Of a DNA stretch of 64,000 nucleotides, positions 3,983-19,561 are shown piece after piece. Source of the stretch: an uncultured Alphaproteobacteria bacterium (GTDB taxonomy: Bacteria > Pseudomonadota > Alphaproteobacteria > UBA7879 > VGCX01). Below the pieces are notes generated by a model. The model was given only the letters and a program-made list of their open reading frames with translations, did no database searches and was not told where the DNA came from. A program made the translations under genes and the position numbers. Position 1 is the first letter of the stretch. Each line of letters begins with the position of its first letter. The stretch covers positions 13,955-77,954 of the forward strand of contig CAJXSI010000001.1 of assembly GCA_913061155.1 (NCBI GenBank), read 5' to 3'.

Positions 3983-5986
3983 TTGGCCGATAAAGGTAAT
4001 AAAAATAAATCAAAATCAAGACCTTTCCCTGACAGGCAAGATATAATTGATTATATTCAAAAATTTGAATCTCCGCCAACTAAGCGGGATATTGCCCGGT
4101 ATTTTAAAATCCGGGGGGATCGCAATAAAATTAAATTAAAAGAATTATTGAATGAATTAAGATCTTTGGGGTTCTTCAAAGATATCATACAAAAAGATCG
4201 CAATACCGATAGGGCAAAAAAATACGAAGGGGCCGAAGAAATTAAATCTTTGGTTGGATTTGTGCAGCTGACAGATAGGGGGTTGCGCTTTATTCCGTCT
4301 ACGCGAAAAATAAAAATTGCTTTTGAAATTAAGGGGGCTAAGAATTTTAGCCAAGAAAAAATTGGCCTGGCGTTTAGTGCAGAAGTCATTTCAATGGAAC
4401 CCCCGATTGTTGAATTGGAAAAAGAAATTGGACCTGCAAGTGATGTAAGTCTTATCTCTGCAATGTCGGCAGGGTTACCTGCGGAATTTACAAAAGAAGT
4501 TATCGAAGAATCAGAAAAAGTCAGTGTGATCCCTGAATTAGGAAAACGTGAAGATATTCGCAAAATCCCCCTTATTACCATAGATGGTAAAGATTCCAGA
4601 GATTTTGACGATGCCGTTTTTGCTGAAAAAACAAAAGATGGGTGGCATATTATTGTGGCCATCGCTGACGTTTCTTATTACGTCCAGCCTGGATCGGCGT
4701 TGGATAGATCCGCCCTAGAGCGAGGCAATTCAACTTATTTCCCAGATCGCGTTATCCCAATGTTACCTGAAAATCTTTCCAACGGTATATGTTCATTGAA
4801 CCCTGATGAAGATCGGGCTTGTATGGGGGTTCATATCTGGATTGATGACCAAGGTAAGAAAAAAAAGCATAAGTTTTTTAGGGGATTAATGCGATCCCAT
4901 GCCCGGACAACTTATGAACAAATCCAAAAAGCTTATGAATCAAATAAAGGTGATCTTAAGGGAAAGGCAGACCAATTGTTTGGCGCGTTTCATGCCCTTG
5001 AAAATGCGCGAAAAAAACGGGGAACATTGGAAATTGAAGTGCCAGAACCGTATATCATCTTTGATGAAAAAGGCTTTGTCAAAGAACTTGTCCCCCGAAG
5101 TCGCTTAGATGCCCATAAACTTATTGAAGAATTCATGGTCTTGGCCAATGTTGCGGCAGCAGAAGAATTGGAAAGTCATAAACAGCTTTGTATGTACCGT
5201 ATTCACAACAGCCCTGATCAAGAAAAAGTTGAAGAAATTCGCAAATTGTTAACGCGTTTGAAAATAAAATATGAAGGGTCTTTGAAGGCGTCAAAAGACT
5301 TTACAACCTTAATTAAGCAGGTGCATGACACGCCTTACAAAAATATTGTCAGCGAACTTATTTTAAGGTCCCAAAGTCAGGCAGTCTATTCTTCGGATAA
5401 CATTGGTCACTTTGGCTTGAACCTTGAACATTATGCGCATTTTACATCACCAATCAGACGTTATTCAGATTTGATGGTTCACCGGGGACTTCTAAAAACT
5501 TTGAATATTTCAGAAGGGGCCCAACCTTCGATTTCAAAAGATGACTTCCAAGAAATTGCTGGGCGTATTTCTGTGACAGAACGGCGTTCTGTGGGCGCAG
5601 AGCGTGAGGCAATGGATCGTTATATGACACAATTCTTATCAAACCGTGAAGGGGATGAGTTTGATGTTTATGTAACGGGTATATCCAAAGCAGGTTTATT
5701 TGTCACCATTCCTGAATTTAATGCCAGTGGTTTGGTGCCGGCCCGCTTATTAAGCGATGATTATTATATTTTAAAAGATCACCCAACCCGCCTTGAGGGC
5801 CGCCGAACAAAAAGAAAATTCAGCTTTGGCGATAATATGCGCGTGTTTTTGGCATCGGCTGACCTAACAAAAGGCCGATTGACATTTGAACCCACAGGGG
5901 AAATGTTCAAAACGCAAACACGTTATAAAACAACCCCAAGGGCAGGCAATAAAAAGCCAATGAACAAAGGTAAACGAAAACGTTAG
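3983..5986 (+). CDS. rnr: Ribonuclease R (RNB family 3'-5' exoribonuclease)
   Basis: RNB catalytic region (ITIDGKDSRDFDDAVF...HFGLNLEHYAHFTSPIRRYSD), a C-terminal S1-like region and a basic tail. Confidence 0.85.
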   Translation: MADKGNKNKSKSRPFPDRQDIIDYIQKFESPPTKRDIARYFKIRGDRNKIKLKELLNELRSLGFFKDIIQKDRNTDRAKKYEGAEEIKSLVGFVQLTDRGLRFIPSTRKIKIAFEIKGAKNFSQEKIGLAFSAEVISMEPPIVELEKEIGPASDVSLISAMSAGLPAEFTKEVIEESEKVSVIPELGKREDIRKIPLITIDGKDSRDFDDAVFAEKTKDGWHIIVAIADVSYYVQPGSALDRSALERGNSTYFPDRVIPMLPENLSNGICSLNPDEDRACMGVHIWIDDQGKKKKHKFFRGLMRSHARTTYEQIQKAYESNKGDLKGKADQLFGAFHALENARKKRGTLEIEVPEPYIIFDEKGFVKELVPRSRLDAHKLIEEFMVLANVAAAEELESHKQLCMYRIHNSPDQEKVEEIRKLLTRLKIKYEGSLKASKDFTTLIKQVHDTPYKNIVSELILRSQSQAVYSSDNIGHFGLNLEHYAHFTSPIRRYSDLMVHRGLLKTLNISEGAQPSISKDDFQEIAGRISVTERRSVGAEREAMDRYMTQFLSNREGDEFDVYVTGISKAGLFVTIPEFNASGLVPARLLSDDYYILKDHPTRLEGRRTKRKFSFGDNMRVFLASADLTKGRLTFEPTGEMFKTQTRYKTTPRAGNKKPMNKGKRKR

Positions 5987-10878: not shown

Positions 10879-11337
10879 TTATTTATTGAAATCTTTAAGG
10901 ATACGGGCTTTGTCTTTGTTCCAGTCTTTTTCTTTTTTGTCGGCCCTTTTGTCGTATAATTTCTTTCCTCTGCCAAGGCCAAATTCAATTTTCACACGGC
11001 CTTTTTCATTAAAATATAGGCAAATAGGAACAAGGGAATACCCCTTTTTTTGGATGGCCCCAATTAATTTATTAATTTCTTTTTTCTTTAAAAGGAGTTT
11101 GCGTTGACGACGGGGCGCATGATTAAATTGGTTGGCACCAGAATATTCAGCGATATAAGAGTTAACAAGATAAACTTCGTTATTTGAAATATCCCCATAA
11201 GATTCTGTGATATTGGATTTTCCTGTTCTTAAGGACTTTACTTCACTTCCGAACAAGGCAATGCCAGCCTCATAAACTTCCTCAATAAAGAAGTCAAAAT
11301 GGGCGCGTTTATTTTTTGCTATGATATGCTTTTTCAT
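10879..11337 (-). CDS. smpB: SsrA-binding protein SmpB
   Basis: KNKRAHFDFFIEEVYEAGIALFGSEVKSLR...NYIAEY...LLLKKKEI, with a basic C-terminal tail. Confidence 0.9.
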   Translation of the reverse strand: MKKHIIAKNKRAHFDFFIEEVYEAGIALFGSEVKSLRTGKSNITESYGDISNNEVYLVNSYIAEYSGANQFNHAPRRQRKLLLKKKEINKLIGAIQKKGYSLVPICLYFNEKGRVKIEFGLGRGKKLYDKRADKKEKDWNKDKARILKDFNK

Positions 11338-13595: not shown

Positions 13596-14600
13596 TTACT
13601 TTCCGTACACTTTCTGAAGATAAGCAATGTTTTTGGAATAGTTTTCACCCCGATAATAATATTTTCTTAAGACACTTAAACATCTTTTTTGAAAATCAGT
13701 ATTCCCCAAGTATTGATCAAGCCTGGTTTCTTTACCCCCCTTTTTTACTGGGGACCTCATCATAATTTGCGCTGCCAGATTTAGCATGGTTCTTGTGGTT
13801 TCTGTCGAATCCTTTTCAACATTTATACTGTCCATGAAATAACAAATATAATTTTCCGTTTTTTCCACGGGGCATTGTGAAAGGCATTTATAAAAGCGTG
13901 TCATATACTTGTTTTTTGAATGAGAAAGTTTCAAGGCCAGGCTTTTTATAAGATCGATTAAGTCAGCAGGATTGCGTTTTGCCGTATGTTTAATGAAACC
14001 CTCTATGGATCTTGATGTTTTTGGTATTCTTTGTGGCGTGCAATAATTTTGACACCAATCAAATAATCCTTTTGTTTTAATGAAAGACGATAGAGAGTTA
14101 ACAGATTTGTTTTTGCAGGTGTGGTGATATTCTTTGAACTGAGGATATGTCTTTTCAAAAACTTGCTTGAATAACCGTAAGGTTTTTGTCAAGTTTTGGG
14201 TTATCTCTGCTGGATTTTTTTTCTTTAAGTCTAAGGACATTAACTTAATATGGTTAACACACTTTTGCGTGTTAAAGTTTCTTAATAAAGCATAAAGCTT
14301 GTTATTTTCTGGGCTTTTTTCCTGTCCCGTTATCTTTGGTATATCCAATAATTTCTTTGCCAGAGGTTCTATGGTTTCTTGCGCAGGGGATAAGGCAAGG
14401 TTATAAAGCAATTCACAATAATAGGCCGTAGATTCAGTGTAAGAACAATCTGTCAGGCATTTTAAAGGGGGGACGTCTTTGGTATAGTTAAGGGCATCAT
14501 GACGCCCCCTTTTTGCATCACACTTATAAGCACATAAAAAATTTGCTTCAGAAAATCTTCCAATCAATAAAACGCAACAGCACAGAAATAACTTTAACAT
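13596..14600 (-). CDS. Secreted cysteine-rich hypothetical protein
   Basis: Signal peptide MLKLFLCCCVLLIGRFSEA, more than 20 Cys, no recognisable domain. Confidence 0.45.
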   Translation of the reverse strand: MLKLFLCCCVLLIGRFSEANFLCAYKCDAKRGRHDALNYTKDVPPLKCLTDCSYTESTAYYCELLYNLALSPAQETIEPLAKKLLDIPKITGQEKSPENNKLYALLRNFNTQKCVNHIKLMSLDLKKKNPAEITQNLTKTLRLFKQVFEKTYPQFKEYHHTCKNKSVNSLSSFIKTKGLFDWCQNYCTPQRIPKTSRSIEGFIKHTAKRNPADLIDLIKSLALKLSHSKNKYMTRFYKCLSQCPVEKTENYICYFMDSINVEKDSTETTRTMLNLAAQIMMRSPVKKGGKETRLDQYLGNTDFQKRCLSVLRKYYYRGENYSKNIAYLQKVYGK

Positions 14601-14663: not shown

Positions 14664-14948
14664 TTATTGTTTTTTCGTCAAACTTTTTAAGTACGATAAA
14701 GTAAGGGCCCGCAAGCTTTCAAGGTATGTTTTATATTCAGGGTCAAAATATAGACGCTCAATATTATTATCAATTTCCCCTAAAAGATTTAAGATCTTAT
14801 TTCTTTTATGCCAAATCGGCAGTTTATCTTGTTTTAAAAGCTTTATGCTTTCATAAAATTTTTGTTCAAGCATAAGGACGGTTTTTTCTTGCTGCCGCGC
14901 AGAAAAAAAACAATAGGTTTTCTTATAGATATTTTTACTTAATAACAT
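14664..14948 (-). CDS. Hypothetical protein (orphan, 94 aa)
   Basis: Open frame only, no recognisable motif. Confidence 0.3.
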   Translation of the reverse strand: MLLSKNIYKKTYCFFSARQQEKTVLMLEQKFYESIKLLKQDKLPIWHKRNKILNLLGEIDNNIERLYFDPEYKTYLESLRALTLSYLKSLTKKQ

Positions 14949-15119: not shown

Positions 15120-15527
15120 ATGAATTTATATGAAGATCTTGTGCAATATCAAGAACAGTTGATTGACCATAAAATAGGGGCTAAGCTGGTAATATCAGAA
15201 GAACTTAAAGCCGTGAGGTTGCCAATTGATCAAGAAAGGAAAATAGAAATATTTGATTTATTAATTATTTATTTTTCCAGAAAATTTGAAGGGCAAAAAA
15301 TGATCCAATTAAACTTTAATCTTGAAGTTAAAAAAGGAAAATGCATTATTATCATTAAGCCTCAGACAAATTATAAGGCAGATGCATCTGTTGTTCATCA
15401 GGAATTTTTTTGGACCATGCATCTTATCTTTAATAATTTATTGAAAACAAAAGAAACCAAGATTTGGGGAAACTTTGTGAAAGACAAGTTTCGATTGCAA
15501 CTTCCCTTATGGTGTATGGCAGCATAG
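15120..15527 (+). CDS. Hypothetical protein (135 aa) abutting def
   Basis: Open frame ending 7 nt before the def start. No recognisable motif. Confidence 0.35.
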   Translation: MNLYEDLVQYQEQLIDHKIGAKLVISEELKAVRLPIDQERKIEIFDLLIIYFSRKFEGQKMIQLNFNLEVKKGKCIIIIKPQTNYKADASVVHQEFFWTMHLIFNNLLKTKETKIWGNFVKDKFRLQLPLWCMAA

Positions 15528-16103: not shown

Positions 16104-16856
16104 TTATACAGAGGTTTCGTTTTGGTTTCCTTCTCCTGGCTCCATGCTTGGTAAAGACATTACTTTTCCCCAATAATTTATGATTACTTTAATCCCTTCT
16201 TCGTAAGATATTTTGTCTTGTACTTTGCGCATGAATCCAGCCGCATTATGTTTATAACAGTCGATCATCTGTTGGCGACTTATGGAATTCGTGACAATAA
16301 CAACAGGAATATCTGACAGATGTCGGTCCCTTTTTATTTCTTTCAAAAGAAAATAACCATCTATTTTAGATGTTTTCAATTCTGTAATAATAAGTTCTGG
16401 TTTTGGGAACTTAATCAGGCCTATCTTGCTTTTTAAGAAATTAAGCGCCTTATCACTATCGTGAAAAGACAAGATATTCGTGTCTACATCCGATTCTTTT
16501 ATCGCTTGTCTTAGCAAAAGTTCATCACTTGCATCTTGTTCAATAATGACAATATCAATGGGTTTGGTCCGACTTGCCGGAATGGTTTCTTCGGGGGAGG
16601 ATAAATAGTCATCATTTGGTTCGTGATATCCATCAAAAAAGAAGTTTGGGTGAATGCTGAATATTTTTGATAGTTTATACATCACCCCTGCAGATACACG
16701 GGTGGTGCCTTGTTCATATTTCTGAATTTGTTGATGCGAAACGGTTAGTTTCTCTGCAAGATCAGAAAGTGTCCAGTTTAATTTTTGCCGGCGTTCCCTG
16801 ATCCTTGCCCCGACATATATATCTAAAACATTGCTTTTATCGGTCATTTTGTCCAA
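16104..16856 (-). CDS. XRE-family HTH fused to a CheY-like receiver domain (atypical phospho-site)
   Basis: N-terminal IRERRQKLNWTLSDLAEKLTVSHQQIQKYEQG (XRE HTH). The C-terminal ~120 aa has receiver topology (IVIIEQD...LIITELKTSKIDG...PVVIVTNS...GFMRK). Confidence 0.6.
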   Translation of the reverse strand: MDKMTDKSNVLDIYVGARIRERRQKLNWTLSDLAEKLTVSHQQIQKYEQGTTRVSAGVMYKLSKIFSIHPNFFFDGYHEPNDDYLSSPEETIPASRTKPIDIVIIEQDASDELLLRQAIKESDVDTNILSFHDSDKALNFLKSKIGLIKFPKPELIITELKTSKIDGYFLLKEIKRDRHLSDIPVVIVTNSISRQQMIDCYKHNAAGFMRKVQDKISYEEGIKVIINYWGKVMSLPSMEPGEGNQNETSV

Positions 16857-17059
16857 ACTTTCTTCTATTATGTTAGCTTTTTCCCTATGGTTCCTTAACC
16901 GCCAGAAAGCAGCAAGTTTAAAACTGTAAAAAATGCTAAATCTTTTGGCGTTAAAGATATACTTTTATAGTACATAAATAGAATTATTATAGAATTTTAC
17001 TTCTGTCAAGGGTGTTAATTTTCATTTAAAAAAATGGGAAAAAGTGTTATATAGGAAGA

Positions 17060-17473
17060 ATGAGAAATTTTAATTCTTTCAAAAATAATCTTTATAAGAT
17101 GTTCTTGGCCCTTCCCACACTGACTTTTTCGGCTGGGTCATTTTCCGTTTGTCCTTTTTGCCTGCCTTTTTATGCAGGGGTTTTCGGATTTCTTGGCTTG
17201 GAAAAGGGAACAACGACTTATTATTTGTTTATTGTCTTGGCCATGGTTTTGGCCGTTTCTTTGGTTTACGCCTTATGTCTGGCCATAAAGTCAAAACAAT
17301 ATTGGCAAGCCGTCTTTGTATTGTGTGGATTTTTAATCACGTTTTATGCAAAAATATATGATATGAAAATTTTGTTGTACCTTGGTTTGACGGTTTTTGT
17401 TATATCTATATTTCGAATAAAAAAATCATGTAAAAGTTGTAGTATCAGTGAACATAAAAAAACCAAAAATTAA
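17060..17473 (+). CDS. Small membrane protein with CPFC and CKSC motifs
   Basis: Three or four hydrophobic helices and two CxxC pairs. Overlaps the downstream glycosyltransferase start by 26 nt. Confidence 0.35.
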   Translation: MRNFNSFKNNLYKMFLALPTLTFSAGSFSVCPFCLPFYAGVFGFLGLEKGTTTYYLFIVLAMVLAVSLVYALCLAIKSKQYWQAVFVLCGFLITFYAKIYDMKILLYLGLTVFVISIFRIKKSCKSCSISEHKKTKN

Positions 17474-18623
17474 AAAAATTAAGATAGACTTGCCAAAAGT
17501 CTTACAAGTTTTGCCTGCCTTAAACACAGGTGGCGTGGAACGTGGGGCGGTTGATGTCGCAATCGAACTTAAGAAAAGGGGCGCTGTTCCCATGGTGGTT
17601 TCATCGGGCGGGCATTATGAAAGCCTTTTAAAAAGACATGGAATTATGCATGTTAAGTTACCGGTTGATTCGAAAAACCCTTTGACCATGATTCTTAATA
17701 TTTTTCGTCTAAAAAAGATTATAGATATTTATAATATAGATCTGGTTCATGCCCGCAGTCGCGCCCCAGCCTGGAGCGCTTATTATGCAGCAAAAAAAAT
17801 GGGCGTTAAGTTTGTAACAACCTTTCATGGAACTTATAATTTCAGTAACAATCTTAAACGTTTTTATAATTCGATTATGACGCGTGGGGACAAGGTTATT
17901 GCCGTTTCGAAACACATCGCAGATCATATTAAAAAATTCTATGAAATCAAGAAAAAGACCATAGAAACGATTCATCGTGGGGTCGATATTTCTATGTTTG
18001 ATCCAAACTCTATTTCCCAAGGACGGATAGATACCGTGATGAAGAAATTTAGTTTGCCAGTTGATAAATCCATTATTCTTTTGCCAGGCCGCATCACCCG
18101 ATGGAAGGGGCATCTTTCGTTGATTAGGGCGATGGGGGAAATCAAAGAAAAAGATTGTATATGCTTGTTTGTGGGGCCTACAAACAAAAAGAATACTGGC
18201 TATCAAAAAGAAATTCTTGATATGGCTGCCAAGTATGACGTTACGAATCAAGTGTATATATATGATAGTTGTAATGATATGCCGGCTTTGTATAAAATTG
18301 CGCATGTGACTGTTTCTGCCTCTACGGACCCAGAGGCATTTGGCCGTGTAATGGCAGAGGCTGGTGCCATAGGATGTCCTGTCGTTGCAACAAACCATGG
18401 GGGCGCAGTTGAGATCATTAAAGGTGAAAAAACGGGTTGGCTTTATGATTTAGAAGACACAAAAGGTATGGCAGCCGCCCTGGATAAAGCTTTGTCCTGT
18501 TCCAAAACAAAAAGAATGGAAATATCAAGGGCCGCCCGCAAGCATATCAAGGAAAATTTTTCAAACGATATGATGTTGGAAAAAATAATTAATTTGTATC
18601 GTTCTTTGTATAAAAAGAAGTAA
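17448..18623 (+). CDS. Glycosyltransferase family 4 (LPS-core type)
   Basis: VLQVLPALNTGGVERGAVD N-terminus and C-terminal EAFGRVMAEAGAIGCPVVATNHGGAVEII, matching the GT4 E-x7-E region. The exact start is uncertain. Confidence 0.75.
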   Translation: MNIKKPKIKKIKIDLPKVLQVLPALNTGGVERGAVDVAIELKKRGAVPMVVSSGGHYESLLKRHGIMHVKLPVDSKNPLTMILNIFRLKKIIDIYNIDLVHARSRAPAWSAYYAAKKMGVKFVTTFHGTYNFSNNLKRFYNSIMTRGDKVIAVSKHIADHIKKFYEIKKKTIETIHRGVDISMFDPNSISQGRIDTVMKKFSLPVDKSIILLPGRITRWKGHLSLIRAMGEIKEKDCICLFVGPTNKKNTGYQKEILDMAAKYDVTNQVYIYDSCNDMPALYKIAHVTVSASTDPEAFGRVMAEAGAIGCPVVATNHGGAVEIIKGEKTGWLYDLEDTKGMAAALDKALSCSKTKRMEISRAARKHIKENFSNDMMLEKIINLYRSLYKKK

Positions 18624-18625
18624 CT

Positions 18626-19561
18626 ATGCCGAAAAATAAGGTTTTAATCATCAAGCACGGGGCGCTGGGGGATATGATCTTTGCAAATGGGGCGTTCCAG
18701 GCGATATCTAAACATCATAAAAAGGATCACATTGTTCTTTTGACCACATCTGCCTATGCATCCATGATGGAGATGTCTGATTATTTTGATGAGGTTTGGG
18801 TGGATAATCGCCCCCGTCCCTTAACAAGCCCCATAGAATGTTGGCGATTATTTCAAAAATTGCGTCAGGCCAAATTCACAAAAATATATGACCTGCAAAA
18901 ATCCAAGCGTACAAAGCAATACAGGCAACTTACAGACCGGTGGTTTAATCCAAAACCTGATTGGTGTACGAAACATGTTGGGGCAAAGTATGCCTATGCA
19001 GACCCTGCCCAATATGATTTGCACATATATGATCGTCATGCAAATATGCTGGCTGTTGCCGGGATTAAAAACGTTCCAAAACCCAATATTGACTGGATGA
19101 AATCTGATATTAAAGGTCTGAAACTTCCTGAAAAATACTTTATTTTTGTCCCGGGGTGTTCTCCTACGCAGCCCCATAAACGGTGGCAGCCTGAAAGTTA
19201 TGGCGAAGTTGCAAAATGGTTGGTTAAAAAAGGCATTATCCCCGTTATTATTGGAACAAAAGATGAGGCAGGTATTATCCAAACCATTCAATCCATTTGT
19301 CCGCAGGCAATCAGTCTAGAGGGAAAAACATCCTTGTTTGATATTGCTGAAATTGGGCGCCATGCTGTGGGGGCGTTGGGGCATGATACGGGGCCTATGC
19401 ACATTGTGGCGGTTACGGGGTGTCCTTCGGTTATGTTGTTTTCATGGTCATCTATTCCCAAGCATTACGCCCCCAGAGGATTCAAGGCAACGATCTTTCA
19501 CCAAAATAATCTGGAAGATATTTCTGTTGCCGAAGTTATAAAATCTTTACCCATAAAATAA
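18626..19561 (+). CDS. Glycosyltransferase family 9 (ADP-heptose:LPS heptosyltransferase-like)
   Basis: KVLIIKHGALGDMIFANGAFQAISKHH, the GT9 N-terminal signature, and ...GHDTGPMHIVAVTGCP in the C-terminal domain. Confidence 0.75.
   Translation: MPKNKVLIIKHGALGDMIFANGAFQAISKHHKKDHIVLLTTSAYASMMEMSDYFDEVWVDNRPRPLTSPIECWRLFQKLRQAKFTKIYDLQKSKRTKQYRQLTDRWFNPKPDWCTKHVGAKYAYADPAQYDLHIYDRHANMLAVAGIKNVPKPNIDWMKSDIKGLKLPEKYFIFVPGCSPTQPHKRWQPESYGEVAKWLVKKGIIPVIIGTKDEAGIIQTIQSICPQAISLEGKTSLFDIAEIGRHAVGALGHDTGPMHIVAVTGCPSVMLFSWSSIPKHYAPRGFKATIFHQNNLEDISVAEVIKSLPIK

Follow-up and report, generated by a model that had tools for sequence, protein, structure and literature searches.

The 64,000-nucleotide stretch analyzed here, positions 13,955 to 77,954 of contig CAJXSI010000001.1 from an uncultured Alphaproteobacteria bacterium (the window), carries at 16104..16847 on its minus strand a gene for a regulator in which an XRE/Cro-C1-type helix-turn-helix (HTH) is followed by a CheY-like receiver domain (XRE-REC). 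The receiver bears a glutamate, Glu159, where a working response regulator bears its phosphorylatable aspartate. Judged from sequence comparisons, the best explanation, held at a probability of roughly 0.72, is that the protein is a phosphorylation-independent pseudo-receiver, i.e., an aspartate-less receiver (ALR), descended from a kinase-partnered response regulator. A phosphorylation-independent pseudo-receiver had already been proposed in an original prediction made from the DNA alone, and this reading is now backed by the loss of the second acidic residue of the active site and by the absence of a kinase near the Asp-less relatives of the regulator.

On the minus strand, where all the features of the gene are found, the open reading frame (ORF) listed at 16104..16856 codes for 250 aa from a TTG at 16856, and the residue numbers used below follow this 250-aa numbering. 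The most likely start is the ATG at 16845-16847 (the fourth codon), which gives a protein of 247 aa, because the near-identical metagenomic homolog P0001 begins there and the spacers of four close relatives also align at this ATG. Pfam detects HTH_3 (PF01381) at residues 19-72 (16641..16802; E=2.3e-13, 50.4 bits against a cut-off of 23) and Response_reg (PF00072) at residues 102-214 (E=1.1e-9, 38.9 bits against a cut-off of 30.2), and as both scores lie above curated thresholds, neither match is due to chance. NCBIfam returned only generic sub-threshold matches (CheY, NtrC, DicA, and HigA), so that no curated family of this database covers the regulator. An AlphaFold2 model built on 39 homologs, with a mean predicted local distance difference test score (pLDDT) of 85.5, folds residues 6-73 into a five-helix HTH and residues 100-232 (16161..16559) into a (beta-alpha)5 domain of 5 strands and 5 helices. 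The two are joined by a disordered, flexible linker at residues ~74-98 (16563..16637), which has low pLDDT and is the least conserved part of the protein, with the highest ratio of nonsynonymous to synonymous substitution rates (dN/dS). The closest matches found by Foldseek in the PDB are Rcp1, DrRR, RcpA, and RcpB, with target-normalised template modelling (TM) scores of 0.86-0.92 (0.87-0.92 for Rcp1, RcpA, and DrRR). The best sequence matches are likewise these four proteins (E about 1e-14), and their alignments run through a C-terminal extension with a YW...LP motif (residues 228-236; 16149..16175) that is common to Rcp1 and DrRR and nearly invariant across the XRE-REC family, as is, near-invariantly, the recognition-helix motif SHQQIQKYEQG. 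The predicted order of an N-terminal XRE HTH and a C-terminal receiver thus agrees with Pfam, with the model and with Foldseek; the C-terminal domain has a true receiver fold and belongs to the phytochrome-associated response regulator subtype.

The active site of this receiver departs from that of a phosphorylatable one at two positions. Pairwise phmmer alignments set the query LIITELKTSKIDG opposite LILLDLNLPKKDG of Rcp1 and LILLDLNMPRVDG of DrRR at the phospho-acceptor column. When aligned by MAFFT with CheY of E. coli, the protein has E159 opposite D57. The acceptor position (CheY D57, DrRR D66) is therefore occupied in the CheY, Rcp1, and DrRR alignments alike by Glu159 (codon GAA, 16380..16382), as had been predicted, and a check of the sequence at the end of beta3 found no alternative Asp there. 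The beta1 acidic pair, D12-D13 in CheY and E15-D16 in DrRR, corresponds to Glu106-Gln107 (16536..16541). In the crystal structure of DrRR, the metal is bound by Glu15, Asp16, and Asn17 together with the acceptor Asp66 (PMC8292422), and these four residues align with E106, Q107, D108, and E159. Where the original prediction read the acidic pair as EQD rather than DD, the loss of the second acidic residue stands; the pair itself is to be read as E106-Q107, which has kept its first acidic residue but not the second metal ligand, with D108 at the next position, equivalent to DrRR Asn17. The conserved Thr/Ser and Lys had also been recognized, and are assigned by the CheY alignment to Thr189 (16290..16292; CheY T87) and Lys211 (16224..16226; CheY K109); CheY Y106 and P110 correspond to F208 and V212. 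In the model, the strands beta1, beta3, beta4, and beta5 carry the signature residues at their C-terminal ends. Of the hallmarks of a functional receiver, the protein has thus retained the Thr/Ser and the Lys and has lost the acceptor Asp and the second of the two acidic residues, and it falls within the ALR definition, in which a receiver is detected and the acceptor Asp is lacking (PMC4395418; PMC12632262). The loss of the acceptor Asp and of the second metal ligand suggests that the receiver no longer takes part in His-Asp phosphotransfer. For annotation, the product should be named an atypical (Asp-less) XRE-family response-regulator-like transcription factor and not a working two-component regulator.

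The same substitution pattern recurs in the family to which the regulator belongs. A homology search returned 39 full-length proteins of the same architecture, of which the named entries are called “response regulator [Alphaproteobacteria bacterium].” Among species-representative genomes, full-length relatives are confined to metagenome-assembled genomes (MAGs) mostly labelled Holosporales, Holosporaceae, or Paracaedibacteraceae, and the other matches cover the HTH only. A deep profile search retrieved 546 proteins at E<=1e-30. The 149 full-length XRE+REC members bear D (96), E (27), N (14), S (7), C (2), or G, R, or H (1 each) at the acceptor position, and ~36% of the family are accordingly without the acceptor Asp; according to a 2025 review, pseudo-receivers make up “several percent” of all receivers (PMC12632262). 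Of the E-type members, 20/27 are without the second acidic residue, vs. 9/96 of the D-type members, and the Lys equivalent to K211 is kept in 144/149. On an approximate neighbor-joining (NJ) tree, Asp was lost at least six separate times, once in the clade of the window and at least five times elsewhere. Seven records of this alphaproteobacterial family come from MAGs labelled Verrucomicrobiales, Chlorobiaceae, Patescibacteria, Pelagibacter, or Rhizobiaceae (L011, L021, L024, L025, L016, L026, and L029), which is likely a matter of mis-binning or mislabelling.

The presence of a kinase gene goes with that of the acceptor Asp. When the ORFs around 35 species-level loci (27 Asp-bearing and 8 Asp-less, the window included) were clustered, the single recurrent neighbor was a cytoplasmic kinase with the Pfam layout PAS-(GAF)-PAS-HisKA-HATPase_c, which often ends 3-15 nt upstream of the start of the regulator gene on the same strand; three short, divergent versions of it keep the His of the H-box. 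This kinase is encoded within 6 kb in 19/27 Asp-bearing loci vs. 0/8 Asp-less loci (Fisher p=5.5e-4, with phylogeny ignored). Four more contexts from the Glu-bearing clade of the window have no nearby kinase either, which brings the count to 0/12 Asp-less contexts, and on the approximate NJ tree none of the at least six Asp losses has a kinase nearby. The claim that the window holds no cognate histidine kinase also proved sound: searched against all six-frame ORFs of its 64 kb, a kinase-core hidden Markov model (HMM) gave a best match of E=0.73. Another kinase-less clade (L002, L007, L014, L020, L028, and L048) varies between D, E, N, and S at the acceptor position; ygfZ-like folate-binding and GT9 heptosyltransferase-family genes lie ~0.7-2.5 kb downstream of its regulator genes. 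GT9 genes thus recur near kinase-less members in two arrangements, and the two GT9 proteins are 21-28% identical.

Taken together, the ancestral state of the family would have been, as one part of the best explanation and with the same confidence, a true response regulator that had the acceptor Asp and was encoded directly downstream of a PAS-(GAF)-PAS-HisKA-HATPase kinase. In the lineage of the window, the adjacent kinase has been lost, the acceptor Asp has become Glu159 and the second metal-binding Asp has become Gln107. The receiver may then act, without phosphorylation, as a module for dimerisation or regulation through which two XRE HTHs are brought together on DNA. By analogy with phytochrome-type receivers, most of which dimerise via alpha4-beta5-alpha5 (PMC8292422), this same face is likely to form the dimer. 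Most of the atypical response regulators characterised so far are orphans, and many of them dimerise constitutively (PMC12632262). Glu is the commonest substitution in ALRs (26%), which usually keep the first acidic residue and the Lys and lose the second acidic residue (PMC4395418). An earlier step in the history of the family may be reflected in stand-alone XRE proteins of 120-138 aa encoded in Brevundimonas (L061, 5959-6375) and Hyphomonas (L055, 5959-6321), which are ~35-45% identical to the HTH module of the family and have in common with it the signature VGxR...S.QQ.QKYE.G...FF.G. Judging by this resemblance, they may represent the ancestral DNA-binding module, and they suggest that an alphaproteobacterial XRE protein was fused to a phytochrome-type receiver at the origin of the family. 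The Brevundimonas gene follows a 545-aa ORF that looks lnt-like from its sequence.

Alternatively, the regulator could be a decaying two-component remnant with a functionless receiver, or else an XRE repressor of the mobile-element, prophage, or antitoxin type. Indeed, the HTH weakly matches the Wmk, HigA, MqsA, RstR, and DicA models, and the hosts seem to form an intracellular lineage with reduced genomes. These matches, however, cover only the HTH and reach 21-40 bits against cut-offs of 48-300, and there are no toxin or phage genes adjacent to the regulator, whose chromosomal surroundings show the conserved synteny smpB-SLT-def ... GT4-GT9-maf; a toxin-antitoxin or prophage repressor was rejected on the grounds that the matches are HTH-only and below cut-off. 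As to decay, the clade of the window on the NJ tree comprises 13 sequences (WIN, P0001-P0008, L001 (=P0010), P0022, and L029) with identities down to about 45-50%, and the acceptor is Glu in all 13, which answers the call for an ortholog check on the conservation of the Glu; the acceptor codon is GAA in 7/7 coding sequences examined, and at the second acidic position the clade has come to vary between Q, H, P, and Y. Among the closest relatives, the HTH is 93-95% identical and the linker is the fastest evolving part, and the receiver has a proportion of nonsynonymous differences (pN) of 0.06-0.16 vs. 0.63-0.88 for synonymous ones (pS), with a dN/dS of ~0.05 in the sole unsaturated pair. Such low values indicate that the receiver is held by purifying selection and is not decaying. 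The only copy that looks broken, at 6001-6656 of L048 (CP060261.1, a complete Holosporaceae chromosome), was rejected as a true pseudogene, given that several neighboring genes are frameshifted as well, which marks it as an artefact of long-read assembly errors. With the Glu fixed across a deep clade and the receiver under strong selection, the idea of a remnant or of a mobile-element repressor is largely refuted and retains hardly any credibility. As to the way of life of the hosts, a TLC-family ATP/ADP translocase gene (PF03219; L086, 1-36) near the P0022 ortholog is consistent with at least some of them being obligate intracellular.

If phosphorylation is dispensed with, two further questions are whether the Glu acts as a mimic of phospho-Asp and whether some other signal has taken the place of the phosphoryl group. 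On the one hand, independence from phosphorylation is well supported, and a phosphomimetic role of the Glu, as first suggested, is still a hypothesis. That other branches of the family have N, S, G, C, R, or H at this position argues for simple phospho-independence and against a specific mimic. Moreover, Glu in Asp-less receivers often does not activate alone, and in ChxR it could be changed to Asp or Ala without loss of DNA binding (PMC4395418; PMC12632262). On the other hand, the receiver might be phosphorylation-independent and yet not constitutive, having gained a new input such as redox control of dimerisation through Cys200 (compare the Cys-dependent dimerisation of RitR or HP1021), a small ligand, or a partner protein. 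The whole receiver is under strong purifying selection, and it retains the switch residues Thr189, Phe208, and Lys211 as well as the C-terminal extension. According to a census of Cys in the family, the protein has no cysteine besides Cys200 (16257..16259), and every Glu-clade sequence has it (11/11). Its place is in helix alpha4, within the face through which receivers usually dimerise (4-5-5), and dimerisation through a Cys under redox control has been documented in other Asp-less receivers (PMC12632262). The same Cys, however, occurs in 14/96 Asp-bearing members and is absent from most other E-type members, and is thus not specific to the loss of Asp. A new input is a minority possibility, and Cys200 as an alternative redox input is, from its conservation, only a lead. 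More speculative still, and somewhat less probable, is a broader proposal in which the family would form a natural series of conversions from two- to one-component regulation, comprising about one third of its members and at least six losses of Asp and kinase, and in which the receiver of the window, with its long-fixed Glu and its dimer-face Cys, would be a Glu-locked, possibly redox-gated dimerisation switch for envelope glycan genes in intracellular bacteria.

Candidate targets of the regulator are found across its own promoter region. As the original prediction had stated, the gene is divergent from glycosyltransferase genes: on the plus strand, 17060..19561 holds a set made up, from its ORFs, domain matches, and synteny, of a 137-aa membrane protein (17060-17473), a GT4 glycosyltransferase (17448-18623), and a GT9 heptosyltransferase-family protein (18626-19561). 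The spacer between the two (16857-17059) has ~65% mean column identity with those of three relatives and includes a sharply conserved block, TTGACA...TTCTAT-N5-TTCTAT-N2-ATGTAC, at 16970..17009, and a second conserved block, TTTAAACTTGCTG, at 16910..16922, both given on the minus strand. The full motif has one true site in the window vs. 0.09 expected by chance, and a search for further copies that might hint at a regulon found none elsewhere in the 64 kb. When the spacer was scanned for sigma-70 promoters, nothing rose above shuffled expectation, and no canonical -10 stands 16-18 nt from the conserved TTGACA. From its conservation, the block is a reasonable candidate for a promoter/operator serving both autoregulation and the divergent membrane-protein/GT4/GT9 operon. 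It would most likely be the binding site of the regulator, and binding there would bring about autoregulation and possibly control of the membrane-protein, GT4, and GT9 genes. Three relatives have xTTC-N7-GTTC, which is reminiscent of the alphaproteobacterial LexA box (GTTC-N7-GTTC); since the window has ATTC...ATTC, a LexA box was not adopted.

Several observations weigh against the proposed explanation, some of them bearing on its DNA-binding part and others on the loss of the kinase. XRE dimers typically bind inverted repeats, and the conserved motif of the spacer is a direct repeat. Despite the near-invariant recognition helix, TTCTAT-N5-TTCTAT-N2-ATGTAC was not found upstream of distant members and is limited to the sub-clade of the window. 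Upstream of 30 genes or operons of the family, the search for enriched 5-mer dyads and 7-mers returned generic AT-rich words only, and with no shared element, dyad, or word, a family-wide operator was rejected. The membrane-protein/GT4/GT9 synteny is kept only in the closest relatives, at ~75% identity; deeper members of the Glu clade adjoin dsbA-like and glyQS genes, or AAA ATPases. A functional link to the glycosyltransferases drawn from synteny was therefore rejected, and given the direct repeat, the absence of the element from distant members and the limited synteny, the link between the regulator and its operator or targets is weak. Control of surface glycan genes, as first proposed, is still a hypothesis. 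As for the kinase, the contrast between Asp-bearing and Asp-less loci is drawn between related loci whose kinship the Fisher test leaves aside, 8/27 Asp-bearing relatives also have no adjacent kinase, and the search covered 64 kb of genome, so that an unlinked kinase may be encoded elsewhere. These last two points would suit a conventional response regulator whose unlinked histidine kinase phosphorylates Glu159 or another residue, and so would the retention of Thr189 and Lys211 and the position of D108, which adjoins the lost metal ligand. Such a protein is nevertheless very unlikely: it has neither the acceptor Asp nor the second metal-binding Asp, beta3 offers no substitute at its end, none of the 12 Asp-less contexts has a nearby kinase, and the authors of the ALR survey knew of no case in which phosphorylation of a Glu plays a part in bacterial signalling (PMC4395418). 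The phosphorylation-independent pseudo-receiver thus remains the preferred explanation of the protein.

The immediate neighbors of the regulator gene in the window are def, the membrane-protein gene, and the GT4 gene. The product of 17060-17473 is a multi-pass protein with CPFC and CKSC motifs, and its gene, which opens the divergent operon, overlaps the start of the GT4 gene by 26 nt. It has no Pfam family, and its sole NCBIfam match, “cell surface glycopolymer formation protein,” is sub-threshold (E=0.006); the protein is 63% conserved in L029 and is also present in L081 and L084. In L084, a DUF3800 gene (5082-5768) lies between the regulator and def, an insertion seen neither in the window nor in L029 or L081. 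Between tRNA/SLT and def, the window has three ORFs without a Pfam family, at 13596-14600 and 14664-14948 on the minus strand and 15120-15527 on the plus strand, among them a Cys-rich 334-aa ORF with a hydrophobic N-terminus. Being ~45% conserved in L029, they are probably real lineage-specific genes. The gene smpB is at 10879-11337 on the minus strand, and a scan of the window at the Rfam gathering thresholds detected six tRNAs only, and no transfer-messenger RNA (tmRNA).

Orphan receivers with Glu in place of Asp are a well-known class, and the protein of the window is, taken alone, unsurprising to a specialist. What it adds lies at the level of the family, in the repeated joint loss of Asp and kinase within an uncharacterised XRE-REC architecture. 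Pseudo-receivers are common and their mechanism is poorly understood (PMC12632262). Close members of the XRE-REC family all have the same simple architecture, bear Asp, Glu, Asn, or Ser at the acceptor position and are accompanied by a kinase in some cases and not in others, which makes the family a handy comparative set for the role of a receiver after the loss of phosphorylation. It also provides an example of signalling simplification in reduced-genome Alphaproteobacteria.

Among known systems, the closest parallel to the Glu-bearing receiver is ChxR of Chlamydia trachomatis, which, like 26% of ALRs, has a receiver fold with Glu at the acceptor position. The protein also follows the typical ALR pattern in having kept the Lys and the first acidic residue but not the second, and its gene has no adjacent kinase; as with ChxR, the regulator probably comes from an intracellular bacterium whose genome is reduced. 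Unlike ChxR and most studied ALR factors, in which an N-terminal receiver is joined to a winged-helix or other output, the regulator of the window has its XRE HTH at the N-terminus, and its receiver is of the phytochrome-associated subtype. An XRE output is mentioned in neither of the two ALR reviews (PMC4395418; PMC12632262), and within a literature coverage that was incomplete, no published description of an XRE-first, receiver-second architecture was found. A receiver and an XRE-type HTH are also combined in one protein in DigR of Myxococcus xanthus, which has its receiver in front, is phosphorylated on Asp53 by SgmT and recognises a palindrome in its dimeric form (PMC3509222). In contrast to DigR, with its leading receiver, its Asp53 and its kinase SgmT, the protein of the window has the reversed order, a Glu, and no nearby kinase. 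Its domain order can be likened to that of the PhyR-type regulators of Alphaproteobacteria, members of the same phylum, in which the output is N-terminal and the receiver C-terminal, the reverse of classical response regulators. PhyR, whose output is sigma-like, works by partner switching once its Asp has been phosphorylated; no sequence relationship to PhyR was found for the N-terminal domain of the regulator, for which no dedicated comparison was made. Finally, the receiver itself resembles Rcp1 (1I3C), RcpA (1K68), RcpB (1K66), and DrRR (6XVU) in its FPxPxLI motif before beta3 and in its YW...LP-type C-terminal extension. Those four are stand-alone proteins with an intact Asp and phytochrome kinases as partners, whereas the receiver of the window is fused to an HTH and has lost its Asp. 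The kinases of its Asp-bearing relatives differ from the partners of Rcp1-type receivers as well: with PAS, GAF, HisKA, and HATPase_c as the only Pfam domains detected in them, and no phytochrome-specific one, they are PAS/GAF-HisKA proteins.

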